NCBI GenBank assembly: GCA_036444275.1
Contig: JAZGAD010000010.1
Coordinates: 14,271-78,270, forward strand
Length of the DNA: 64,000 bases
From: Candidatus Hydrothermarchaeales archaeon
GTDB taxonomy: Archaea; Hydrothermarchaeota; Hydrothermarchaeia; Hydrothermarchaeales; JAZGAD01
Reading direction: 5' to 3'
Of the stretch, positions 32,492 to 45,048 are shown in pieces. Below the pieces are notes generated by a model. The model had not been told where the DNA came from. It ran no database searches and saw only the letters and a list, made by a program, of their open reading frames with translations. The translations under genes and the position numbers were made by a program. Numbering within the stretch: position 1 is the first letter of the stretch; each line of letters starts with the position of its first letter.

Positions 32492-33509
32492 ATGGATACG
32501 GCTGGGAGGATAACCGTCAGCTTCCCATATAATCCTTCCTACATTACAAAGATAAAAAGCATAAAAGGTCACAGGTGGCATCCTGAAGAAAAATACTGGC
32601 GTGTGCCATACTCTGAGCTTGAAAACCTCTTATCTGTCTTTGATGGCGAGAAGGCTGATATCGACTCCGCTCTCTATTTCGAGCCCCTGAGAAAAGAGCT
32701 TGCATCGAGGAAGTACAGCCGGAGAACGATGAAGATGTATCTGCAGTACAATGAGGATTTCTTGAGGTTTGCAAGGAAAACTCCTTACAAGATTTCCAAT
32801 AGCGACGTGAGGGATTATCTGTATCACTTGGCGGAGGAGAGGGATGCATCTGCCTCTACCCTGAATATTGCTATAAATGCGTTGAAGTTCTACTATGGTG
32901 AGATCTTAAAGCGGGGGTTTGCTTATGGGATTAAGAGGCCTAAGAAGGATAAGAAAATGCCCGTTGTATTAAGTCCGGAGGAAGTTTCCAAGATTTTATC
33001 TTCACTTTCAAACATCAAGCATAAAGCCATTCTTATGCTTATGTATTCTGCTGGATTAAGAGTTGGTGAAGTTGTGAAGTTGAGGGTTGAGGATATAGAT
33101 ACTGGAAGAAAGTTAATTCATATCCGTGGTGGGAAAGGAAGGAAAGATCGCTATACTATACTTTCAGATGTTGCATTGGAGACCCTCAAAGTATATATCA
33201 ACGCCTGCAATCCAGAAAATTGGCTTTTTCCTGGGGGGAAAGGATAGAGGGCATGTTACCACAAGAACTGTGCAAAGGATATTTGAAGATGCCGTCAGAG
33301 AGGTCGGTGTTGGCAAAGACGTTAGCGTTCATTCTTTGAGACATAGCTTTGCAACACATCTATTAGAAAGCGGCGTAGATTTGAGGTATATTCAGGAATT
33401 GTTAGGGCACAAAAGCAGTAAAACGACAGAGATATACACTCATGTGAGCAACAAGTCTTGGAGCAGAATAAAAAGCCCTCTGGATCTAATTCAAAGAGGT
33501 GGGACATGA
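32492..33509 (+). pseudogene. Integron-integrase-like tyrosine recombinase split by a 1-nt frameshift
   Basis: SAM-like N-domain, [34 protein letters not shown]; break at the G6 run 33233-33238. Confidence 0.9.
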
Positions 33510-33536
33510 GGGAGTTTGGTAGCATCCGGGATGGGT

Positions 33537-33606
33537 ATATGCGCAATGCAGATATAATTCTAAATAGGGATGATATACGCAATGCGTATATGAACGAGTT
33601 AGGCGA
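33537..33606 (+). other. attI-like site
   Basis: Two related palindromes 36 bp apart followed by GTTAGGC core at 33598-33604. Confidence 0.7.
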
Positions 33607-33654
33607 AATTTTTAAATCGCCTTTATAAGAACTTAAAAAAGGAATGTGAAATAG

Positions 33655-35055
33655 TTGAATATGAAAGCTTTAATACTTGCCGCTGGAGACGGTGGCAGAT
33701 TGGGCAACTTAACTAAAAATAAACCCAAGCCCCTGATTAAACTTTTGGGATTAACTTTGATCGAAAGAGTAATATTAACTGCAAAACAAGCAGGCATTAA
33801 AGAATTCGTGATAGTTTTTGGTTATCTGGGTGACAAAATAAAAGCAAAATTGGGAACTGGAGATAGGTATGGAGTAGAAATAAACTATATCGAAAATAAT
33901 GACTGCCAAAAAGAAAATGGGATCTCTGTATTAAAGGCCAAAGGATTGTTAAATGAAAACTTCATCCTGTTAATGTCAGACCATATCTTTGATAATCGTA
34001 TTCTGAAAGAACTTATCGATTATGATACAAAAAGTTCAGTTGTTTTAGCTATTGATAGAAGAAAATCTCTACCAGGAGACACAAAGGTTCTGGAGAAGGA
34101 AGGAAGAATTGTTGATATCGGTAAAAATATAGAAGAATCAAACTGCATAGATACGGGTATCTTCTTGTGCTCACCAAAAATATTTTCTCATATTGAAGAA
34201 GCAGTAAAAGAAGGTAAAACTGAGCTTGCACATGATATTGCTAAAGCTGTTAAGAACAGAGATGCAGAAATATTCGACATCACGCAAATTAACAGCTATA
34301 TCCCGAGCATGCGGAAGGAGATTAAAGCTTTCTGGATAGATATTGATACAAAGGAGGATTTAATCAAAGCAAAAAAGCTTTTAATTGAGAATGCCTGTAA
34401 AGGACGAAATGACCTGCTTGCAACCTATGTGAATAAGCCAATAGAAAATTTTATTGTAAGCAGATTGGCGAACACGCAGATTACACCAAACCAGGTTACT
34501 ATACTAACAAACATAGTTGCTTATACATCCACATTTTTATTTCTCGAAGGATATCTATTGTTTGCTTCCATTCTCACCTTTATCGTTTCATTTATGGACG
34601 GTGTGGACGGAAAACTTTCAAGAGTGAAAATAGCCTTTTCAAATATTGGGAAAATGGAGTACGCCTTCGATTTTCTTTATGAGCATTCATGGTATATCGC
34701 CTTAGCCATCTATCTATCAAAGGACTATGGACTATCAGCGATTTTACTGTGCACATTCATACTCCTGTTTGATGGTTTTTCTCATTTTTGCAGACAGGCG
34801 TTTGGGAAGGCAATAAAGGACCGCCCATTAACAGATTATGGACGAATTGAACGGCTATTCAGAAAATTTGATGGTAGGAAGAACAGTTATATAATTTTTA
34901 TCTTAATAGGTGTTTTGCTAAATGCACCTTTCTGGTCATTAGTTGCAATATCTGTATGGTCATTGGTCAGTGCTATATTTTATTCTTCAAGGGCGATTTT
35001 GCATTTATATCGAGCCGATAAATCAACTCAGGGACCATATGGGAGCAAAAGATGA
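33655..35055 (+). CDS. Bifunctional inositol-1-phosphate cytidylyltransferase / CDP-alcohol phosphotransferase (IPCT/DIPPS-like)
   Basis: LAAGDGGR..KP NTP-transferase domain fused to a TPNQVT..DGVDGKLSR membrane domain. Confidence 0.85.
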   Translation: MNMKALILAAGDGGRLGNLTKNKPKPLIKLLGLTLIERVILTAKQAGIKEFVIVFGYLGDKIKAKLGTGDRYGVEINYIENNDCQKENGISVLKAKGLLNENFILLMSDHIFDNRILKELIDYDTKSSVVLAIDRRKSLPGDTKVLEKEGRIVDIGKNIEESNCIDTGIFLCSPKIFSHIEEAVKEGKTELAHDIAKAVKNRDAEIFDITQINSYIPSMRKEIKAFWIDIDTKEDLIKAKKLLIENACKGRNDLLATYVNKPIENFIVSRLANTQITPNQVTILTNIVAYTSTFLFLEGYLLFASILTFIVSFMDGVDGKLSRVKIAFSNIGKMEYAFDFLYEHSWYIALAIYLSKDYGLSAILLCTFILLFDGFSHFCRQAFGKAIKDRPLTDYGRIERLFRKFDGRKNSYIIFILIGVLLNAPFWSLVAISVWSLVSAIFYSSRAILHLYRADKSTQGPYGSKR

Positions 35056-35132
35056 AGATAAGAATGATGTGGCTTGGGAAGGTCGTCAACGGACCTTCCA
35101 TCCACCTGAAATTAGTAGGGAGGGCTTGAACA

Positions 35133-36257
35133 ATGAAGATCGCTTACGTATCAACCTATCTCCCCAAACAGTGTGGGATAGCCACCTACACGGATTATCT
35201 CATTCACGGTCTCAGAGAGGTGGATCCGGCATTGGAGATTAAGATCATTGCCGAACAAGGAGCATCTCCTATCAAACAAGATAAACTTGAAGTGATCCCC
35301 TCCTGGGATAGAAACGAGGATTATGTAGAACCTATCATCTCACGCACAAAGGGTGCAGATGTAATCCACATTCAGCACGAATACGGCATATACAAATTTG
35401 ATGATAGATTACCATTATTACTCCAGGGATTGGACCCAGATGCCCGGAAGGTGATAACCATCCATTGCGTGAGACCAGCTCAGTTCTCCGAAAGAGATGC
35501 TGTAGATGAGAATTTTGCAGCAAAAATCGCTCAACTTGCCGATCAGGTCATCGTACACCTTGAGTCGCAAAAAGCAATCCTGACACGACTTGGAATACCA
35601 TCAGGAAAGATTCACATTATTCCCCATGGAACAGTGCTTAGTGATGAGGATAAAGAGGCTTCACGGAAGAGGCTCGGACTGCCCAAGGACGCAAAGATAC
35701 TTCTCATGTTCGGGTTTGTCAAGAAACACAAGTGTTTACACATCGTTCTTGAGGCCCTCGTTGAGATATTGGAGAAATTCAAAGATATATATCTATTTGT
35801 GGCCGGAGGTCTTGCTCCAATAGCCTCACAGAAGGACAGGGACTATGCAGAATATGTGGGCAAGAGGATAGCGGAACTGGGGCTTCAGAAGAACGTCATC
35901 TACCCAAACAGGTTCTTTCCCAACGAAGATGTGCCATATCTGTTGGGGGCATCTGACATTATCCTGTTTCCTTACTATGAGGAGGACCGCTCTGCCTCGG
36001 GCTCATTTCACCTGGCCATTGGTGCGAAAAAACCAGTTATTGCTTCGAGGATACCCAAGTTTGAAGAACTGAGAAATATCTGCGATGAACTTCTTGTCCT
36101 TCCGTATAACTCTTCGGGAATTGCAAAAGTAGTCATTCGTCTTTTTGAAGACTCAAAATTTCGGCAGTATGTAGTCAATCGCACCGAAGAATACAGAAAT
36201 CTTACCTCCTGGCAAACCGTAGCGCACCAACACTTGAAATTGTATAAGGGAGTTTGA
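35133..36257 (+). CDS. GT4-like glycosyltransferase
   Basis: CGIATY, HIQHEYG, FGF..KK, PY...SASG. Confidence 0.85.
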   Translation: MKIAYVSTYLPKQCGIATYTDYLIHGLREVDPALEIKIIAEQGASPIKQDKLEVIPSWDRNEDYVEPIISRTKGADVIHIQHEYGIYKFDDRLPLLLQGLDPDARKVITIHCVRPAQFSERDAVDENFAAKIAQLADQVIVHLESQKAILTRLGIPSGKIHIIPHGTVLSDEDKEASRKRLGLPKDAKILLMFGFVKKHKCLHIVLEALVEILEKFKDIYLFVAGGLAPIASQKDRDYAEYVGKRIAELGLQKNVIYPNRFFPNEDVPYLLGASDIILFPYYEEDRSASGSFHLAIGAKKPVIASRIPKFEELRNICDELLVLPYNSSGIAKVVIRLFEDSKFRQYVVNRTEEYRNLTSWQTVAHQHLKLYKGV

Positions 36258-36258
36258 G

Positions 36259-37299
36259 ATGAAGATAGGAATGATGACCGCTTGGAACCAAGATGTAGGA
36301 CCTTCTATTCATGCCGAGCTGATCGGCAGAGAATGGGTGAAGATGGGTCATGAGCTTAGAATTTTTTCCTTCCTTAAGTCAGATTTTCATGGCACAGCCA
36401 TTGTTGGTCAGGATGAGGAGTATGTGCTCCGATGTTTTACTACATCTACGGCAGAAAGACCATTTTTGGATGCTCGTCCCTTCGTAGAATTCCATCCCGA
36501 TATTTTCATTACCCAAGATCTTGGGACGTTGCCAATGGATGCTCTCGCAAAGATTTTCCACCTTATAAAAAAAGAAGCAAAGACGATAACCGTGATCCAC
36601 GATCGAATGCTTTCATCAAATCCATCTTTTTATCAATTTGAATGGGATGCGATTATTTGTAGCGATAAAAGGTACGTAGAATTTCTTAAAGAGGCTTATC
36701 CAGAGGAAAAAATCTATGTAATACCCCATCCATACAATAAGTGGAGAGCCGGGGATAAGATTCGGGCAAGAAAGAAATTAGATCTGCCACTCGATAAGAA
36801 GATTATCCTGAACTTTGGTCAAAGAGTAAAGGATTTCAAAGAAACACTTCCTGCGATTTCCGAACTTCAGTCCAACTATCCGATTCTTGTTTTGGTAGTT
36901 ACCAGAGAAGAAATAGAAGAACTCAGAAGAGAAACAACTTTACCAATTGAGATAAGGGAAGAGAGCCCATGTATAGAAAGGGTTTATGAGTATTTACACG
37001 CATCAGATGCCATGGTACTTCACCGTAAATCTATTGAGGGGATTGTCTATTCAAGCACCACTTATCAGTGCTTAGGATCAGGTTGTTCCGTCGTTGCGCT
37101 AAACTCAAACTTCTTCCAGCCATTTGGTGTGGAAGTCTTAAAATATGATGACTTAGCGGGCTTAAAGGAGTGCCTAATCGATATATTTAAAGAAGGAAAA
37201 AGATATAAAACAGCAAAATTATTAGCGGAAAGGGTGGTAAAAAGAAATACTCCACAAGAGATAGCAACTAAATTCATTAAACTTTTTGAATCGCTGTGA
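36259..37299 (+). CDS. GT-B glycosyltransferase (paralogue of 38056-39099)
   Basis: MKIGMMTAWN..HAE..W.KMGH N-terminus shared with the paralogue. Confidence 0.7.
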   Translation: MKIGMMTAWNQDVGPSIHAELIGREWVKMGHELRIFSFLKSDFHGTAIVGQDEEYVLRCFTTSTAERPFLDARPFVEFHPDIFITQDLGTLPMDALAKIFHLIKKEAKTITVIHDRMLSSNPSFYQFEWDAIICSDKRYVEFLKEAYPEEKIYVIPHPYNKWRAGDKIRARKKLDLPLDKKIILNFGQRVKDFKETLPAISELQSNYPILVLVVTREEIEELRRETTLPIEIREESPCIERVYEYLHASDAMVLHRKSIEGIVYSSTTYQCLGSGCSVVALNSNFFQPFGVEVLKYDDLAGLKECLIDIFKEGKRYKTAKLLAERVVKRNTPQEIATKFIKLFESL

Positions 37300-37307
37300 T
37301 GGGTAAA

Positions 37308-37424
37308 ATGAAATCTAAAACTTTTGTTGGTAGAGAGAATAAATTAAAGCTACTGGAACACTATTTTGAAGAAACCATCAAAAACAAAAAAAGGCATTGT
37401 TATTTTGCTTACATGAGGAAATAG
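37308..37424 (+). pseudogene. Archaeal ATPase N-terminal fragment
   Basis: MKSKTFVGRENKLKLL.. (FVGRE motif) then truncated. Confidence 0.4.
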
Positions 37425-37427
37425 GTA

Positions 37428-37772
37428 TTGGCAAACAGACGCTTAACACCCTGGGGCAGCTGGCAGGTTCTTGCTGAAGGCCGAGAATATAAGGTAAAAC
37501 TGATTAAAGTGAAGCCAGGGCACCGCTTTAGCCTCCAGTTGCATAATCGTAGAGATGAGCACTGGATGGTTGTTTCAGGTCAAGCAAGAGTAGAGATTGG
37601 AGACAAAACAGTTAAAGCTAAACCCGGAAAATACATATTCATTCCTAAAAAGACGAAGCACCGGCTGCAAAATCCGGGAAAGAGTCGTCTCGTGGTAATT
37701 GAGGTTCAAAGGGGTAAATATCTAGAAGAGGACGATATTGTTCGCCAAGAAGATAATTATGGAAGGTCATGA
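37428..37772 (+). CDS. Type II mannose-6-phosphate isomerase cupin domain
   Basis: PWGSW, SLQLH..RDEHW, HRLQN, EVQRG.YLEEDDIVR. Confidence 0.9.
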   Translation: MANRRLTPWGSWQVLAEGREYKVKLIKVKPGHRFSLQLHNRRDEHWMVVSGQARVEIGDKTVKAKPGKYIFIPKKTKHRLQNPGKSRLVVIEVQRGKYLEEDDIVRQEDNYGRS

Positions 37773-38032
37773 AACTTAATTCAGAGATTTTTAGAGAGCA
37801 CGATATAAGGGGAGTGGTTGATAAGGACTTGGATCCGGAGGTGGTGGAAGAAATTGGTAGGGCCTTTGGGGCTTATATTGGGAAGGGTAAGGTGGCGGTA
37901 GGACAGAGGGGATATTGAGATAATGAGCAAAGATTTAAAACTTAGCAACTAGAGTTAGAAGAGATTAATGATATCTTCATCGAAAGGCTTAAGAAGTATC
38001 CTCAAATGGACATTAAGCCGTTTAGAGGATAA
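37769..38032 (+). pseudogene. Phosphomannomutase/phosphoglucomutase remnant (internal deletion)
   Basis: MKLNSEIFREHDIRGVVDKDL..IGRAFG..VAVG then stop at 37918; a possible C-terminal remnant follows. Confidence 0.75.
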
Positions 38033-38055
38033 TTATTTTGGAAGGAGGCTAGAGG

Positions 38056-39099
38056 ATGAGAATTGCTATGATGAGTGCTTGGAACACAGATAGTGGAGTA
38101 GCTGTACATGCAGAACCATTGGGCAAAGCCTGGATAAAGATGGGACATAAGTTAACTGTATTTACTTTCATCAAGGATGACTTCCATGGGGAGGGGTTTA
38201 CCGGCGAAGATGAGGAGTATGTAGTCAGATGTTTTGGCACTCAAGAGCATACCAACTTCTTAGACCCCCGGCCTATCCTCACCACGGACTTTGATATCTT
38301 CGTAGTTCAGGATTTAAGGATACTTCCAGTAGAAAAATTAGCCAAAGTATTTAGCCTGATTAAACAGCGGGCCATGACAATACATATAGTTCATGAAAAT
38401 AAATTACCTGATGATGCCTGGTTTTATCAATTTGACTGGGACAAGGTAGTCTATTTTGATCAGAGGCAGGAATTCCTAAAAGAGATATACCCTGACGCTA
38501 AACTTATCCCTTTTCCTTGTTATGAACTAAGAAGGCGTGATAAGCTTGAGGCAAAAAAGAGGTTAGAGCTCCCCCTGGATAAGAAAATCATCTACTCTTT
38601 TGGCCAACGCGGCTATCATTCCTATCTTCGAAACTTACCTGATGAGATTAAAGATAAGGCAGTGCTTCTACATGTTGTCTCCAAAGAATACCAGATGCTT
38701 GAAGAGGAATCTCCTCCCGATTGGATGATTATTAGAAGAGAGGATGTTTTATCCCGCGAGAAATTTAATGACTATCTCTTTGCCTCGGATGCGGCTATTT
38801 TTCATAAGTTCCAGAGCCGTTATCATGCCGTTGTTTCCTCTACGGTCTTTCAGGCATTAGGTTGTGGTTGCCCAATCTTAGTTCCCCGGCAATCGGATTT
38901 CTTTCATCCTATGCAGAATGAGGTCATACGTTATGGAGATACTCCCGACTTAAATAGGAAGCTGCTTGAATTATTTGGAGATGAACAGACATCTCAAACA
39001 GTCCAAGACGCAGCAGAAGGGTTTGTGTCAATGAATTCACCAGAAAAAATTGCCAAAAGGTATATCGGGCTATTTACTGAGGTCTTAAGAGCAAGATAA
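38056..39099 (+). CDS. GT-B glycosyltransferase (paralogue of 36259-37299)
   Basis: MRIAMMSAWNTDSG..HAE; VSST.FQALG.GCP. Confidence 0.7.
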   Translation: MRIAMMSAWNTDSGVAVHAEPLGKAWIKMGHKLTVFTFIKDDFHGEGFTGEDEEYVVRCFGTQEHTNFLDPRPILTTDFDIFVVQDLRILPVEKLAKVFSLIKQRAMTIHIVHENKLPDDAWFYQFDWDKVVYFDQRQEFLKEIYPDAKLIPFPCYELRRRDKLEAKKRLELPLDKKIIYSFGQRGYHSYLRNLPDEIKDKAVLLHVVSKEYQMLEEESPPDWMIIRREDVLSREKFNDYLFASDAAIFHKFQSRYHAVVSSTVFQALGCGCPILVPRQSDFFHPMQNEVIRYGDTPDLNRKLLELFGDEQTSQTVQDAAEGFVSMNSPEKIAKRYIGLFTEVLRAR

Positions 39100-39134
39100 G
39101 ATGTGCAAGAAAAATTTTATCATCGAGCCATTTT

Positions 39135-39407
39135 GTGGATTATCCAAACAACCCAATTTTAGCTCCGGCAAAAGGTTTCACCTCACAAGGAATATATAAC
39201 CCTACAGTGATTAAAGAAGGAAAAAAATTCTTTATGCTATTCAGGGCTGAGGCAGAAGATGAGTTGACGGGAAGGATAGGGCTTGCTAAAAGTAGTGATG
39301 GCATCCAATTTAGCTTGCACCCCGAACCAGTAATAGTGCCTTCTGCGGATTTCGATAAGTTCGGCTGTGAAGACCCCCGGGTGGTGAGATTTAAAGATAC
39401 TAAGTAA
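39135..39407 (+). pseudogene. Truncated GH130-like glycosidase/phosphorylase
   Basis: NPIL..YNP..RIGLA.S.DG..GCEDPRV then stop. Confidence 0.75.
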
Positions 39408-39410
39408 AAT

Positions 39411-39661
39411 GTGGGAAGAATCAAGATTGCTATTATAGGAGTAGGCAACTGCGCCAGTTCTCTGGTGCAAGGTTTATGGTTCTATAAAGATTCATCAGAA
39501 GAAAAAGTTATCGGCTTAATGCACTACGATGTTGGTGGGTACAAGGTATGGGATTTGAGGTAGCGGCTGCCTTTGATATCGATAAGCGAAAGGTTGGCAA
39601 GCCCTTGAATGAGGCGATATTTGCCAGGCCGAACTGCAGGAGAATTTATAAAATTATTTAA
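39411..39661 (+). pseudogene. ino1: Inositol-3-phosphate synthase fragment, frameshifted
   Basis: [18 protein letters not shown]..., frameshift near 39553, then [25 protein letters not shown]. Confidence 0.85.
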
Positions 39662-39685
39662 CAAGTTGTTATAAGGGGTAATGTA

Positions 39686-40855
39686 ATGAACACTTTGGAA
39701 GAATTAGGAGATGGCAAGGTTATCGAAATCGAATCAGGAGCGACCATTTTTAAACTGGAGTCCGATGAAAAAAACCCTATTGTCAGACCCCAAGACCTCG
39801 GGCTCACCTGGAATGAGAATGGCGAATCGAAGATTGGGGCAGTTTTCAACGGTGGGGCTGAATTTTTCGAGAATAAGGTTATTCTTTTGCCAAGGTGTCA
39901 TAGAGATTACCGAAAGGGCGAATTCTTTGACGAAAAGTTAGGCATTGAGAGGACCTGCCTGGAAAACTACATTTCCGAGGTTTGGCCTTTGGTGAGCGAG
40001 GATGGCGTCCACTTCACCAGATTCCATAACGTGGTAATCCGGGGCGATGGCACCGACCATCAGGACTTTACCTACGGAATAGAGGACATCCGAATCGTTA
40101 AGTACGGCCGGAGATACCTGCTGATCGGGTGTGGGAAGATAAAACCTCCGTTTAAAGGCGGCAATGCGGATCGAATTGCCATTTACACAACCAAAGATTT
40201 TGTGAAGATTAACTATCAGGGCATAGTGGACTCCTTTGACTCGCGCAATGCGGTTCCCTTCTCCGAGCCGGTAAATGGACAACACTGGATACTCCTGCGT
40301 TTTCATACTAATATTCACATAGATTTTCTTGAAGCCGGCATAAATCAATTGCTGAATCCTTCCCAGCACACAGAACAGTGGGATGAAATCTATGAGCGAC
40401 AGAGCCAGAATCTCCTTTTAGAAGCTGGGCACTACCCGCACGAAAAGCAGAAAATCGGCCCGGGCCCCCAGGTGCTCAGAACCGATAGGGGTTGGTTGCT
40501 CATCTACCATGCTGTTGGTGAGATAGAATATAATATCTGCAAAGCCTACGGGTTGACGGAAAAAATTGAAAGAGGATACTCCATCTGCGCTGCCCTTTTG
40601 GACTTAGACGATCCACGAAAGGTGCTTTGTCGAACCAGAAATCCAATCTATATTCCTTCAACCCCTTACGAATTATATGGTAACGATCAATATCCAGTGG
40701 ATGTGTCTGCAGTCGTTTTTCCCATGGGTGCTATTGTTCGAAAAGAAAAACTGATTCTCTATGCCGGAGCTGGCGATAAATACATCATCCTTTTGAGCTG
40801 CGATCTTGATAACTTAGTTAATTATTTATGGGAGTATTGCAAGTACATTGCATAG
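39686..40855 (+). CDS. GH130-like glycosidase/mannoside phosphorylase
   Basis: AVFNGGA, GIEDIRI, KIGPG, WLLIYH, VVFP.G, YAGAGD. Confidence 0.8.
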   Translation: MNTLEELGDGKVIEIESGATIFKLESDEKNPIVRPQDLGLTWNENGESKIGAVFNGGAEFFENKVILLPRCHRDYRKGEFFDEKLGIERTCLENYISEVWPLVSEDGVHFTRFHNVVIRGDGTDHQDFTYGIEDIRIVKYGRRYLLIGCGKIKPPFKGGNADRIAIYTTKDFVKINYQGIVDSFDSRNAVPFSEPVNGQHWILLRFHTNIHIDFLEAGINQLLNPSQHTEQWDEIYERQSQNLLLEAGHYPHEKQKIGPGPQVLRTDRGWLLIYHAVGEIEYNICKAYGLTEKIERGYSICAALLDLDDPRKVLCRTRNPIYIPSTPYELYGNDQYPVDVSAVVFPMGAIVRKEKLILYAGAGDKYIILLSCDLDNLVNYLWEYCKYIA

Positions 40856-40879
40856 GAACTACCATTGACTTGGCACATC

Positions 40880-40949
40880 GCCTAACAACGGCTAAAAGGC
40901 TCCGCCCAAATTTGCTCCGCTAACTTCTTTTATCCGCAATACGTTAGGT
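40880..40949 (+). repeat. attC-like site 1
   Basis: GCCTAAC-A-ACGGCTAAAAG ... ACTT-CTTTTATCCGC-AATAC-GTTAGGT. Confidence 0.8.
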
Positions 40950-40997
40950 GAAATGCCTAAGCCCGCTTTGATGGTAAAATTAAAATAAGAATATGTC

Positions 40998-41318
40998 ATG
41001 GGTGACTGTATGAAAGGCAAAAACACTCTTACAGAAATAATGGACATCTTTAAAAAATATGAAAAGGAACTGAACAGAAGGTACGGGATCAAAAAGATTG
41101 GGATATTTGGCTCGTACCTAAGAAGCGAAGCTGGAGAGGAGAGCGATCTAGATATACTTGTAGAATTTGAACAAGACGTAGATATAGGGCTTTTAAAATT
41201 TGTAGAGATAGAGAACTATCTGAGTGACCTTCTTGGTGTTAAAGTGGATTTGGTGGAAAAATCTGCATTAAAACCGAGGATAGGACGGCGTATATTGAAA
41301 GAGGTTGTTTACGCATGA
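40998..41318 (+). CDS. MntA-like nucleotidyltransferase antitoxin (cassette 2)
   Basis: [16 protein letters not shown] (GSX10DXD). Confidence 0.9.
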
Positions 41319-41659
41319 AGAGAGAGGTTGGAGACTATATTCAAGATGTCATCGACGCTACGAATAAAGGCATGAGATTTGTTGAGGGTGTGGAATATGA
41401 AGATTTCATTCATGATGATAAAACCGTATTTGCTGTGATAAGAGCTATAGAGGTTATTGGTGAAGCAGTCAAAAATATACCTGAAGATGTAAAAATGGAG
41501 TATCCCGAAATTCCCTGGAGAGATATTGCCGGAATGAGAGATAAGCTTATTCATGCTTATTTTGGAGTTAGCATCAAAAGAGTATGGAAAGCTATAAAAG
41601 AAGAAATTCCTCCATTAAAACCTGTATTTGAAAAAATGCTTAAGGACTTAGAAAAATGA
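41315..41659 (+). CDS. HepT/DUF86 toxin (cassette 2)
   Basis: [16 protein letters not shown] (RX4HXY); ATGA coupling to the antitoxin. Confidence 0.9.
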
Positions 41660-41735
41660 GGTCTATAATATTCGGTAGGCTTGGGTACTCTGCGGATTTG
41701 CATTGCAAATCCTTGCCCTCGCTATCGCTCGGGTC

Positions 41736-41886
41736 GCCTAACAGGCGGGTATGCGGTTCGAAATGATGAAAAGTGGTCTCACCCAGATTCCTTTGACAAC
41801 GGTTATATTCAGCTTTCACATTGCTCTCACCTGATGAAATCGGGATGCTCGCAGTCGGCACTTCGCATACCCGCGAAACGTTAGAC
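41736..41886 (+). repeat. attC-like site 2
   Basis: GCCTAAC-AG-GCGGGTATGCG ... ACTT-CGCATACCCGC-GAAAC-GTTAGAC; perfect 11-bp arms. Confidence 0.85.
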
Positions 41887-41930
41887 GCAATAAATTTCAA
41901 TAGTTTGATTTTATATGGAGATATACAATC

Positions 41931-42365
41931 ATGAAAAAGTTTCGAGATGTCGATGAGATAAAAGTAAAATTAGAAGAAGTGAATGCCTTATTTGAAAAAG
42001 GTGATCTTGCATGTTTTTTGTATCTATCAAGTTATATTGAAGATCGCCTGAAACGTAATCTAATGGTTCATTGTTTGTCAGAAGACAGATATTCTAAAGA
42101 GATTGAACATTATATTTTCAACTTAAATCTCTATAATTTAATTGAAATATCCAACTTATTCGGATTAATTACTAAAGAAACTTATACGGATTTGGAAATT
42201 TATAGAAAGTTTAGAAATGAATTGTTTCATGATGCAATTTTCAATGAAGCAATTGATAGAGAGTATGAGAAATATTATTCATTAGGTTGTAAAATAATAT
42301 GTGAACTTCATGACACGGGTGTCGAAATATGCGACGCAATAACCAAAAAAGTAGACATTTCCTAA
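41931..42365 (+). CDS. Putative HEPN-domain protein (cassette 3)
   Basis: Helical protein with IE..L and RNELFH (RX4H) motif; GGAG RBS; AT-rich. Confidence 0.65.
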   Translation: MKKFRDVDEIKVKLEEVNALFEKGDLACFLYLSSYIEDRLKRNLMVHCLSEDRYSKEIEHYIFNLNLYNLIEISNLFGLITKETYTDLEIYRKFRNELFHDAIFNEAIDREYEKYYSLGCKIICELHDTGVEICDAITKKVDIS

Positions 42366-42375
42366 AATTTACATC

Positions 42376-42459
42376 GCCTAACAGAGCGTATCTGGTTCGC
42401 TATCGCTCACCTAAATCTCTCCCGTTGCCTGAACTTCAGATACGCTCGGAACGTTATAT
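42376..42459 (+). repeat. attC-like site 3
   Basis: GCCTAAC-A-GAGCGTATCTG ... ACTT-CAGATACGCTC-GGAAC-GTTATAT; perfect 11-bp arms. Confidence 0.85.
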
Positions 42460-42515
42460 GCAATTTCAAAGAAGTTACTATTCCCCAATTTGAGTTATTA
42501 AAGGAGGTCTAACTT

Positions 42516-43427
42516 ATGTCAATGAAGTCTAAAAGAAAAGACCCCACACCTAAACAGAAAGAAAAATTGCTCTCTATGAATGCGGGAGTTTGCTGTGTAT
42601 GCAAAACAAGAGGGCAAGGTGTTAATTTTCATCATATTGACGGTGACAATACCAACACTGTCATTGAAAACTTAGCTGTTCTTTGCATCAAGGATCATGA
42701 TGCATATCATAGACCTCAGGTTTATACAGAGATGAAACATTTAGAGCTTGGAGCTGAAAAGATATTAAAATGCAAGCTTGAATGGGAATCATTTATAAAA
42801 GCAGCACAAAAAGAAAGTCCCAAAGTGCTAGCTGTAATAAATATTTACGGGACTGAAGAAAGCATACATTCTATGAGATTAATTTTCCAGACAATTGAAT
42901 CAAAAATAATTTTTGAACGACTATATCATCTACTTACAGGATCACCTAAAAGTTGGATAGATTCTGCAATTGATGAAGTTCGCTGGCTTGGATCAAATAT
43001 TCCACTTTCAATAGTAGATAAACCACTTCCAATTGAATATTGCCCTTGCTGTGATAAATCTTTAGCGAATGTAATTGATAGTAATGTTGCAAAGAGGATA
43101 ACGGCAAGCAATTGGGAACAAAATTCTATCTGTTCTATTTATATCAATCCTTCACAACCTTCTTTGGCAATTATACTATTGTATGAAAAAGAAGTTCTTC
43201 TTACCGGATCACTTCATAAATGTGGTGAATGCCTACATTTCATTTGTGATAATTTCGAGGAAAGAGTTCCAATTAAAAAATCGCCCAGCGTGAGAACTCA
43301 GGCAACTAGAATTTTATCTAAAGTTTTAAGTGAGTGGCACCCAGCCCAAATACTTATTGGAACAGGAGATGAAGATAATCCTGAGATCATTGACAATTTG
43401 AACCTATCACGAATATGGGAGAATTAA
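42516..43427 (+). CDS. HNH endonuclease-domain protein with unknown C-terminal region (cassette 4)
   Basis: CCVC..HHIDG..N....NLAVLC..DH..H; AGGAGG RBS. Confidence 0.75.
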   Translation: MSMKSKRKDPTPKQKEKLLSMNAGVCCVCKTRGQGVNFHHIDGDNTNTVIENLAVLCIKDHDAYHRPQVYTEMKHLELGAEKILKCKLEWESFIKAAQKESPKVLAVINIYGTEESIHSMRLIFQTIESKIIFERLYHLLTGSPKSWIDSAIDEVRWLGSNIPLSIVDKPLPIEYCPCCDKSLANVIDSNVAKRITASNWEQNSICSIYINPSQPSLAIILLYEKEVLLTGSLHKCGECLHFICDNFEERVPIKKSPSVRTQATRILSKVLSEWHPAQILIGTGDEDNPEIIDNLNLSRIWEN

Positions 43428-43465
43428 GATTATTACTCAAATAACTCAAATTATGATGAAACGGC

Positions 43466-43528
43466 GTATAACAGAGCATACCTGGCTTCGTGCCTTCGGC
43501 GGACTTCAGATACACGCAACCGTTAAGT
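43466..43528 (+). repeat. attC-like site 4 (degenerate arms)
   Basis: GTATAAC-A-GAGCATACCTG ... ACTT-CAGATACACGC-AACC-GTTAAGT. Confidence 0.75.
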
Positions 43529-43569
43529 GAAAAAGCCCAAAGTTTATTGAATTAAAATGAGGCAAATCC

Positions 43570-44094
43570 GTGAAAGATAATAAACTTCAACAGCTCAAAG
43601 TTGTAATCTCCCTTCTTGAGAAGTATAATAAAATCGAAGAAAAATTAAAAGAGCTCAAAATCGTTCGAACGAGAAAGGTTATCTCAGAAGTTGGCGAGTG
43701 GTATGTCTCTATTCTTTTTAATTGTAAAATAAATACTAACCCGTCTGAAAAAGGATTCGATTGTATTGACCCTGAGACTGGGAAGAAGATTGAAATAAAG
43801 ACTATCAGAAAATCAGAAAGTAATCCTATTGGCTATAGGTTATCTAAGGATAAAGTCGAGCGGCAAATTTTTGATGAACTTATTATTTTGAGGTTGGGAG
43901 ATAATTTTCGGATAAGACAATTGTTTAAGTTGGATAGAGATGATATTTCGGAGGAGAATTTTTCCCTTCTTAGCAGTGCGAAATATAATTTGAGTTGGAA
44001 TTCCTTAAAAAAGGGAAACTTCGAAGTTACTCATGAAAATGCTTTACAAAGAGGGTTAGATGATATAGAAGTATTTAGAATGCTAATGGAATAA
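43570..44094 (+). CDS. PD-(D/E)XK nuclease-like protein (cassette 5)
   Basis: SEVGE..KGFDC...IEIK motif. Confidence 0.7.
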   Translation: MKDNKLQQLKVVISLLEKYNKIEEKLKELKIVRTRKVISEVGEWYVSILFNCKINTNPSEKGFDCIDPETGKKIEIKTIRKSESNPIGYRLSKDKVERQIFDELIILRLGDNFRIRQLFKLDRDDISEENFSLLSSAKYNLSWNSLKKGNFEVTHENALQRGLDDIEVFRMLME

Positions 44095-44107
44095 TATGGG
44101 CTTCTTC

Positions 44108-44183
44108 GCCTAACAGTGTGTTTGCGAAGTGCCGAAGGCATTTGGGTGAGCATGATGCACCGCAAACACACGAACCATTACGC
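44108..44183 (+). repeat. attC-like site 5 (core GTT changed to ATT)
   Basis: GCCTAAC-A-GTGTGTTTGCG ... CGCAAACACAC-GAACC-ATTACGC; perfect 11-bp arms. Confidence 0.8.
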
Positions 44184-44248
44184 GACATTGCGAAATATAA
44201 GAATTTGCGTCTTTTAGATATTCAAAATGGAAATTTCAGGCGCAGTTA

Positions 44249-44261
44249 TTCTTGAATACCA
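44249..44261 (+). repeat. Right copy of 13-bp direct repeat TTCTTGAATACCA
   Basis: Identical to 32315-32327. Confidence 0.55.
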
Positions 44262-44337
44262 AAAGTGACCTAGTGAATTTCCTAAATACTTAAATACAAT
44301 CCATAATCCCTTTTTATTATCTGAATGGGGACGAAGT

Positions 44338-45048
44338 ATGAGAAAGATACTCCCACTAGCTGTCATCCTTATCTTGATCCTAGCGGTCGGCTACTTTTAC
44401 TTGTCTCAGAGACCGAGAGAAGAACTCGTAGGCTCCGAGGCAATAGGAGAAAACGCCCGAATTCTCACCATTAAGACCGAAGTCAAGGGCGTAGAGCACA
44501 CGAGGCATGACATAGAGTACACCAGAGAAGAACGGACTTTCAGGAACTATTTCGACTCCAAACTGAGGCCTGCATTGGCCTGGATAAAAGGAAACGCACC
44601 TGAAGATGCTGTCTTCCTCTGTTGGTGGGACTATGGGCATATGATACGTGGCTATACCGAGAGAGACGCAGTGGTATATAGTCCTTCTAAGGGCATAATG
44701 GAGACTGTATCCAGCGGCAAGTGGGACACCTCCGCTAGTGGAGACTTCTCTACAGAGGAAAGGATAAGAGAAGTAGCTCTAGCCCTAACAGCAAGAGATC
44801 CAAAAGAAACTCTTGATATAATGAAAAAATACAGAGCTAACTATGTCTTTATAACCGCAGAGGATTCTGCGAAGAGCTTTGCCATCTTCTCTAGCTTGGG
44901 CTACGACCCCTCTGAGTATCTAGTGGATTGGAAGCCTACAGAGAAAGCCATGGAAACTATGCTCTTCAAGATGCTCGGGCACGAGCGGGTAGAGGGCTTG
45001 AACCTGCTGTATTCAGATGAATTCGTGAAAATCTATGGGCTAGAATGA
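44338..45048 (+). CDS. Stand-alone STT3/AglB C-terminal-domain protein
   Basis: One N-terminal TM helix; ALAWIK.N..VFLCWWDYGHMI motif; YRANYVFI. Confidence 0.75.
   Translation: MRKILPLAVILILILAVGYFYLSQRPREELVGSEAIGENARILTIKTEVKGVEHTRHDIEYTREERTFRNYFDSKLRPALAWIKGNAPEDAVFLCWWDYGHMIRGYTERDAVVYSPSKGIMETVSSGKWDTSASGDFSTEERIREVALALTARDPKETLDIMKKYRANYVFITAEDSAKSFAIFSSLGYDPSEYLVDWKPTEKAMETMLFKMLGHERVEGLNLLYSDEFVKIYGLE

Follow-up and report, generated by a model that had tools for sequence, protein, structure and literature searches.

Asymmetric hairpin sites linked to a Xer/IntI-related recombinase: a probable integron-like platform in Candidatus Hydrothermarchaeales

Introduction

What are the five hairpins that stand between genes, all on one strand, in a 64,000-nucleotide (nt) stretch of DNA from Candidatus Hydrothermarchaeales archaeon (assembly GCA_036444275.1, contig JAZGAD010000010.1, positions 14,271 to 78,270; the whole stretch is referred to from this point on as the window)? 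An earlier note, made from the letters of the window alone, described them at 40880-44183 as hairpins of one distinct architecture and inferred that they are recognized as folded single strands under rules other than those of classical attC. We consider it likely that they are cassette recombination sites, analogues of attC, of an integron-like gene-capture platform whose recombinase is related to Xer and IntI and is not an IntI. As proposed, the platform would occupy one strand, with the recombinase gene (32492-33509) followed by an attI-like site (33535-33609) and then by five cassettes with one closing site each, and the recombinase would lack the IntI-specific insertion and carry instead an N-terminal domain resembling HARP and the XPB damage-recognition domain (DRD).

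Five co-oriented sites of one plan

A covariance model of the site, run over the 64 kb of the window with filters off at E <= 0.01, returns the following five sites and no others. All are on the + strand and their lengths run from 64 to 152 nt; E-values range from 7.6e-18 to 1.6e-6 in a search of 568,553 bases.

40879-40949, + strand: site 1, arms pairing at 9 of 11 positions
41735-41886, + strand: site 2, arms pairing at 11 of 11 positions, loop of 104 nt
42375-42459, + strand: site 3, arms pairing at 11 of 11 positions, the top model match of the five
43465-43528, + strand: site 4, a hybrid, arms pairing at 7 of 11 positions
44107-44183, + strand: site 5, the last of the array, arms pairing at 11 of 11 positions, 3' box ATTA, inner part inverted

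The single architecture described in the earlier note is borne out by these five co-oriented sites, as is the perfect pairing that it reported for sites 2, 3 and 5. The common plan consists of a TAAC box, 1-2 nt, an 11-nt arm, a loop of 18-104 nt, a C-TT motif (ACTT), the complementary arm, 4-5 nt and a GTTA box, and GCCTAAC is present in four of the five sites. The GTTA end given in the note applies to sites 1-4 but not to site 5, which ends in ATTA, and ACTT is likewise on the + strand in all but site 5. This last site keeps the usual spacers; its ACTT bulge, together with a CCCAAAT loop motif, is read on the minus strand, and its interior appears as though the loop had been inverted. Two related genomes (L090 and L093) have terminal sites with the same GAACC-ATTAC ending as site 5. 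A + strand open reading frame (ORF) ends 10-76 nt 5' of each site, and the next start codon lies 42-57 nt 3' of it. A script scan for the plan picked up the perfect-arm sites only.

The source genome (1.49 Mb, 81% complete) holds eight sites, five of them in the window array and three on contigs C27, C13 and C60. Contig C27 also encodes an archaeosine tRNA-ribosyltransferase, which marks the genome as archaeal, the C60 site is decayed, and the C13 site is a hybrid of two arm types; similarly, site 4 has a 5' arm like that of site 3 and a 3' arm like that of a C27-type site. That the sites share architecture but not arm sequence, as had been claimed, is correct for the plan and too strong for the rest, since the arms retain a partial consensus across sites, G.G.GTAT.TG, and a CCAAAT-like motif is found in the loops of most members of the wider family.

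Hairpins located just 3' of ORFs, and co-oriented with them, might be transcription terminators, RNA elements or repetitive extragenic palindromic (REP)-like repeats rather than recombination sites; the earlier note had named terminators and REP-like repeats as what would refute its reading. A terminator scan found no terminator-like site in 40700-44400, against 1.9 expected, and Rfam has no family at the sites at E <= 1. With eight copies in the genome, five of them in one array, and no terminator-like site, they are neither scattered repeats nor terminator-like. The conserved TAAC and GTTA boxes, the linkage to a recombinase and an attI-like site, and the cassette-wise differences between related genomes, all described below, speak against the same alternative, which we regard as extremely improbable.

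The note had also proposed that both strands be folded with DNA parameters. The outcome is mixed: site 5 alone clearly beats its shuffles (z -2.7 and -3.6), the advantage of sites 1-3 is modest, and site 4 does no better than its shuffles. Folding energy is weak by itself, and structure is argued here from covariation, not from energy.

Geometry and covariation across the site family

A first model was seeded from three sites with a hand-written structure. A second covariance model was run on 151 related archaeal genomes, G000 among them, after which the surrounding DNA was fetched and the matches were aligned. Sites were found in 38 of the 151 genomes, counting G000, and the 119 aligned matches represent 118 distinct sites. 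These form a family with fixed geometry. The 5' spacer is 1 nt long in 94/118 sites and 2 nt in 21/118, while the 3' spacer measures 5 nt in 84/118, 4 nt in 20/118 and 6 nt in 8/118, such that the 3' spacer exceeds the 5' spacer by 3-4 nt in 105 of the 118. The C-TT bulge is present in 103/118 and the CCAAAT-like loop motif in 89/118. The outer boxes, with TAAC in 104/118 and GTTA in 97/118, agree with the R-box consensus of integrons, RYYYAAC ... GTTRRRY.

The 11-bp stem covaries, as the earlier note had read from the differing arms of a few sites. In the 119-row alignment, 91.2% of the cells are paired, compared with 71.4% in shuffles and 35-45% when the partners are slid, and two-sided changes occur at 10 of the 12 arm pairs. 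Cells changed on both sides number 357, against 107 +/- 11 in shuffles, and none of 500 shuffles reaches 357.

Poorly paired members are often hybrids that combine two arm types, as in site 4, the C13 site and the first site of L187. Hybrid sites, with arms of different types and poor pairing, include the following:

Window, 43465-43528: hybrid site (site 4)
L008, 1499-1593: hybrid site
L187, 5156-5237: hybrid site
L060, 3980-4070: hybrid site

Breakpoints of shared DNA at hybrid sites fall just 3' of the 5' arm or in the loop, which suggests recombination or deletion between neighbouring sites in the conserved loop start, not at the boxes.

For comparison, four class 1 attC sites were read from plasmids (aadA1, blaIMP-1, aac(6')-IIa and dfrA14). 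In all four, one spacer is 5 nt and the other 5-6 nt long, and the 5' arm contains an extra base. The available text of Nivina 2016 (PMC5027507) likewise gives canonical attC spacers of 5-6 nt on each arm, and places the extrahelical bases near positions 16 and 23/24 of the arm that faces the bottom-strand AAC. The covariance model of the present sites, run with filters off, matched none of the four at E <= 10. Because the class 1 sites, the published description and the failure of the model to detect them agree, the spacer asymmetry noted in the window is real, family-wide and non-canonical. The 5-6 nt unpaired central spacer on each arm, by which integron sites are recognized, is absent here, and so are extrahelical bases on the R''-L'' arm: the sole conserved bulge, C-TT, is on the R'-L' arm of the coding strand. 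It would count as an R''-L'' feature only if the coding strand were the substrate, which most of the boundary evidence presented below disfavours.

Linkage to a recombinase and an attI-like site

Two features precede the array on the same strand:

32492-33509, + strand: gene of a Xer/IntI-like tyrosine recombinase with an N-terminal extra domain, a SAM-like core-binding domain and a catalytic domain; frameshifted
33535-33609, + strand: attI-like site made of two imperfect palindromes, a CTAAAT/CCAAAT-type spacer, GAACGA and the box GTTAGGCGAAAT at 33598-33609

The arrangement of an integron, an array of ORFs each with a downstream site beside an integrase gene and an attI, is therefore present in the window. 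Species genomes were scanned with the intact 349-residue ortholog of the recombinase from genome G004. The scan returned 63 loci at 35-100% identity in archaeal and bacterial metagenome-assembled genomes (MAGs). Archaeal labels comprise Methanophagales, Methanoperedens, Methanocellales, Thermoplasmata, Altiarchaeota and Nitrosotalea, and bacterial labels include Thermodesulfobacteriota, Acidobacteria, Atribacterota, WOR-3, Spirochaetes, Aquificota and Dehalococcoidia, a cross-domain spread that binning errors could inflate. The covariance model places 46 sites in 25 of the 63 loci, every one (46/46) on the strand of the recombinase; 44 lie downstream of it, in 216,758 nt, and two upstream, in 329,688 nt. 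Among the loci with at least 1.5 kb of downstream DNA, 20 of 29 have a site there. Directly 3' of the recombinase stop, the same attI-like layout (two or three imperfect palindromes, a CCAAAT-type spacer and the box GTTAGGCGAAAT) occurs in 25 of 29 anchored loci, the window included. The sites are thus linked to, and co-oriented with, the recombinase and the attI-like site.

CCAAAT-type motifs stand both between the palindromes of the attI-like site (in the window as CTAAAT, within 33535-33597) and in the site loops counted above, and may represent a shared binding element. Two pairs of loci share more than the recombinase. L184 and L187, binned as a Pacearchaeota archaeon and a Leptospiraceae bacterium, have recombinases 97.7% identical and 1.8 kb of array at 99.3%. 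L149, on a contig of an Acidilobaceae archaeon, has 3.2 kb in common with L153, on a contig labelled 'uncultured bacterium', at 77% and with the first cassette included. Either recent cross-domain transfer or binning error would account for both.

Arrays without IntI are read as orphan arrays. Applied here, that reading would make the five hairpins ordinary attC sites in a cluster of attC sites lacking an integrase (CALIN), moved in trans by a canonical IntI, with the upstream recombinase being the host XerA, nearby by chance. The R boxes fit the integron consensus, the cassettes are small co-oriented ORFs with a toxin-antitoxin pair among them, and the G004 ortholog does pass a XerA model. 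Moreover, in the available text of Ghaly 2022 (PMC9668308), archaeal arrays mostly lack IntI, and IntI1 recombined eight of nine archaeal attCs. Against this, none of the 151 genomes contains a match above the IntI cut-off, whereas this recombinase family has 44 of 46 sites downstream of it, and all 46 co-oriented with it, in MAGs of both domains. The conserved attI-like site bears the same box as the sites, and their spacer and bulge geometry differs from that of the four canonical attCs, all of which the model misses. The recombinase, 50-71% identical across many phyla of both domains and at times multi-copy, also behaves unlike a housekeeping gene. An explanation by ordinary attC sites is accordingly unlikely.

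The recombinase

The hypothesis of different recognition rules gained an unexpected basis when the linked recombinase proved not to be an IntI. The canonical IntI model, TIGR02249, has no match over its cut-off of 265 bits among the 151 genomes. With the G004 ortholog it reaches 230 bits, in a match that skips the insertion; when the ortholog is aligned with IntI1, the two are 34% identical, and about 41 residues of IntI1, in the IntI-specific region, have no counterpart in the ortholog. One element of an integron, an integrase with the IntI-specific domain (I2 region) that passes the IntI model, is therefore absent among these genomes. The catalytic residues R, K, H-x-x-R, H and Y are invariant in 36 relatives, and the closest solved structures are VchIntIA (2a3v) and XerA (5hxy/4a8e). 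The family of relatives is large, with 7,900 of 8,000 candidates scored at E <= 1e-30.

The N-terminal extension comprises 68 conserved residues and is modelled with a predicted local distance difference test (pLDDT) score of 90.8; the nearest folds to the model are the XPB DRD and the HARP domain of SMARCAL1, at template modelling (TM) scores of 0.5-0.58. An LP..W..W.F pattern is common to its residues 6-42 and to residues 203-233 of the IntI1 insertion (L041 1162-2211, minus strand, versus L192 14476-15489, + strand), a match that is non-significant at E 0.86. Should these loci prove to be a second class of integron, the IntI insertion might even derive from this N-terminal domain, of which this weak likeness is the only sign.

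In the window, the gene is broken by a +1 frameshift, with one extra G in the six-G run at 33233-33238, and matches the XerA model NF040815 in two pieces of 142 and 99 bits. A 526-nt contig from run X1, with 21 differences from the window, is one base shorter at 33233, a difference that would put the gene back in frame. Contigs of this run cover only 32883-33409 and the attI-like stretch of the window. Two further X1 contigs match the window at 33543-33609 of the attI-like stretch only, with both flanks unlike those of the window; they represent further copies of the platform within one hot-spring metagenome. Given the broken frame, the array of the source genome may now be static, unless the extra base is an assembly error.

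Cassette boundaries and the strand exchanged

Comparison of related loci shows that cassette boundaries lie mostly at the 3' (GTTA) box. Downstream ends of shared DNA are within -10 to +6 nt of the 3' end of a site in 16 of 25 cases (8 of 14 distinct pairs). Upstream starts (n = 16) are more dispersed, with seven from -7 to +58 nt around the 3' end, five mid-site and four at the 5' end. In two congeneric genomes, different cassettes occupy one chromosomal place, and both arrays end in GAACC-ATTAC. Upstream of family sites, open frames share the strand of the site in 87 cases and have the other strand in 7; a further 56 were ambiguous and 12 too near a contig end. Neighbouring sites, 362-3550 nt apart, are co-oriented in 53 of 54 pairs. 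For 109 of the 118 sites, the minus strand gives the more stable fold, and the same bias is reported for canonical bottom strands in the available text of Nivina 2016 (PMC5027507). Taken together, the boundaries, the strand bias of upstream ORFs and the minus-strand stability favour the classical polarity, in which a cassette is an ORF with its downstream site, the crossover falls in the 3' box and the non-coding strand is exchanged. Under this polarity, the unpaired extras sit on the cleaved arm, the reverse of canonical attC.

The same platform could also be mirrored, such that the hairpin of the + (coding) strand is the substrate and is cut in the 5' TAAC box, a cassette then being a site with the ORF that follows it. 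On the + strand, the 5-nt spacer and the TT at positions 24-25 are opposite AAC, as on canonical bottom strands (Nivina 2016, in the text available). Site 1 comes right after a gene island that is not cassette-like, the shared DNA of L102 stops just past a lone 5' box, and the four starts at the 5' end point the same way. Several observations are at odds with such a mirror image. The attI-like site has a 3'-type box (GTTAGGCGAAAT) directly after the recombinase, and homology ends there; the 16 of 25 downstream ends are at the 3' box; and the 5' box is fully conserved while the 3' box varies beyond GTTA, as expected with a crossover in the 3' box. The minus strand is the more stable in the large majority of sites, and the 5'-end case of L184/L187 is really a hybrid site broken after the 5' arm. 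We judge mirrored polarity to be improbable.

Proposed mechanism and points against it

Under the classical polarity, a single-stranded site would fold into two helices of about 10-11 bp, the R box (TAAC/GTTA with its flanks) and the 11-bp stem, joined by an asymmetric junction of 5 nt and 1 nt, and each helix would be bound by one recombinase monomer. By analogy with integrons, the minus (non-coding) strand would be the one exchanged, with the cut in its 5' TAAC box, and a single strand exchange would give a product resolved by replication. The N-terminal domain may read the distorted parts, namely the 5-nt bulged spacer and the two-base bulge, much as the I2 insertion reads extrahelical bases in IntI. 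The interpretation put forward in the earlier note is supported overall, with the single-stranded substrate and the strand used being what we infer.

A number of points weigh against our interpretation. Single-strand folding and the position of the cut are themselves deduced, and four of the five window sites do not fold clearly better than shuffles (z -0.7 to -1.8 for sites 1-3, +1.0 to +1.2 for site 4). Covariation was measured in an alignment that had been fitted to the model, a procedure that favours the structure of the model. The arms are 11 nt long in 100 sites, of which 41 are perfectly paired and 30 have no more than 8 of 11 positions paired. Some breakpoints of shared DNA fall mid-site (5/16 starts) or at the 5' box (4/16 starts; L083/L102). 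On the + strand, the TT bulge is found on the arm that faces AAC, 24-25 nt in from the outer edge of the 3' box; canonical bottom strands have their conserved extrahelical T at this place, so the + strand could be the substrate. With regard to the enzyme, the G004 ortholog passes NF040815 at 237.6 bits, above the cut-off of 220, and since no other match in G004 does so, a housekeeping Xer role for it is possible. The fold matches of the N-terminal domain are weak (E 0.012-0.07, none at or below 0.001), and Pfam HARP matches only 10 of 36 relatives, below its cut-off. Finally, G011, a genome 99% complete, has seven sites and no recombinase match.

Contents of the cassettes

The five sites of the window close five cassettes, whose features are listed below.

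33610-40878, + strand: first cassette position, a 7.3-kb sugar/inositol-phosphate island with IPCT/DIPPS-like, GT4/GT1, mannose-6-phosphate isomerase cupin, GT and GH130 genes
40998-41659, + strand: toxin-antitoxin pair, nucleotidyltransferase MNT (40998-41318) and HepT-like RNase (41315-41659)
41931-42365, + strand: ORF of 144 residues, no family match
42516-43427, + strand: ORF of 303 residues, weak HNH-like match
43570-44094, + strand: ORF of 174 residues, DUF6998, matching the PADLOC model of a methyl-directed restriction enzyme at E 2e-12

DNA common to the window and other loci stops at 33608-33609, in the attI-like box. Because shared DNA ends there, the 7.3-kb island occupies the first cassette position, closed by site 1. 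The model, with filters off, finds no site inside 33610-40878, and the island may be a captured operon-sized block or several cassettes that lost their sites. The MNT gene at 40998-41318 matches the PADLOC candidate defence family PDC-S09, and the cassettes of the window look defence-related.

Relation to known systems

The platform reprises much of the canonical integron, as represented by class 1 and by the chromosomal integron of Vibrio cholerae. In both, a tyrosine recombinase is encoded beside an attI-type site, and the cassettes of the array are co-oriented, mostly lack promoters and end in an imperfect inverted repeat; the R-box consensus, a covarying stem and a cassette boundary in the 3' box are likewise common to the two. 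The solved structure nearest to a recombinase of the window type is VchIntIA. The differences lie in the recombinase, which is without the IntI-specific insertion and has the extra N-terminal domain; in its gene, which is co-oriented with the cassettes; and in the attI, which is made of palindromes. Co-directional gene orientation is that of the 'inverted' integrons mentioned in the available text of Ghaly 2022 (PMC9668308). The sites themselves depart from canonical attC in their spacers, which measure 1 nt on one arm and 5 nt on the other where attC has 5 and 5-6 nt; in their 11-bp stem, which is unbroken and replaces the L box with its extra base; and in their two-base bulge, which is on the R'-L' arm and not on the R''-L'' arm.

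Archaeal integrons and CALINs have been described before. The available text of Ghaly 2022 (PMC9668308) reports archaeal cassette arrays in MAGs, mostly without IntI, with 539 attCs and with toxin-antitoxin and restriction-type cassettes similar to those seen here. There, the IntI-specific domain is the criterion for an integrase and the canonical attC model the criterion for a site; as far as that text extends, no Xer-like integrase or asymmetric spacer is described. The rAID-1 arrays of Bacteroidales (Ross 2019, bioRxiv 10.1101/471110) are headed by a XerD-like recombinase and are integron-like. In the available text they are defined by a recombinase at least 44% identical to that of B. fragilis, followed by at least two co-directional low-GC genes. 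The likeness is one of layout: the array is co-directional, a recombinase of the XerD family stands at its 5' end, and its intergenic sequences are repetitive. The host phylum differs and the cargo consists of immunity genes of the type VI secretion system.

A third comparison is with archaeal XerA and its dif site. The G004 ortholog passes NF040815, XerA structures are near-top fold matches, and two binding helices of about 11 bp, some 5 nt apart, recall the dif core. In contrast to XerA/dif, the recombinase described here has an extra N-terminal domain and is 50-71% identical across bacterial and archaeal phyla, with multi-copy cases, and its sites are hairpins with long variable loops that occur many to a genome in cassette arrays. 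A search of the literature found no description of this pairing of recombinase and site, or of the asymmetric site; that archaeal cassette arrays mostly lack IntI is already published.

Significance

There is, in our estimate, an even chance that these loci represent a second, cross-domain class of integron, in which the integrase is Xer-like and has, instead of the I2 insertion, a HARP/DRD-like domain at its N terminus, the attI is palindromic, and the unpaired features of the hairpin sites are on the cleaved arm. The I2 insertion of IntI is held, in the available text of Escudero 2020 (PMC7790495), to have allowed recombination of folded single strands.

A recombinase family heading arrays of hairpin sites in both domains would change both the view that I2 is required and the view that arrays without IntI are orphans, and would give archaeal cassette arrays a cognate enzyme. 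If the second class is real, folded single strands can be recombined without the I2 helix, and many arrays without IntI (CALINs) would be explained, both in archaea and in bacterial phyla described as having no integrons. Two natural site designs would, in addition, make the roles of spacer length and bulge position directly testable.

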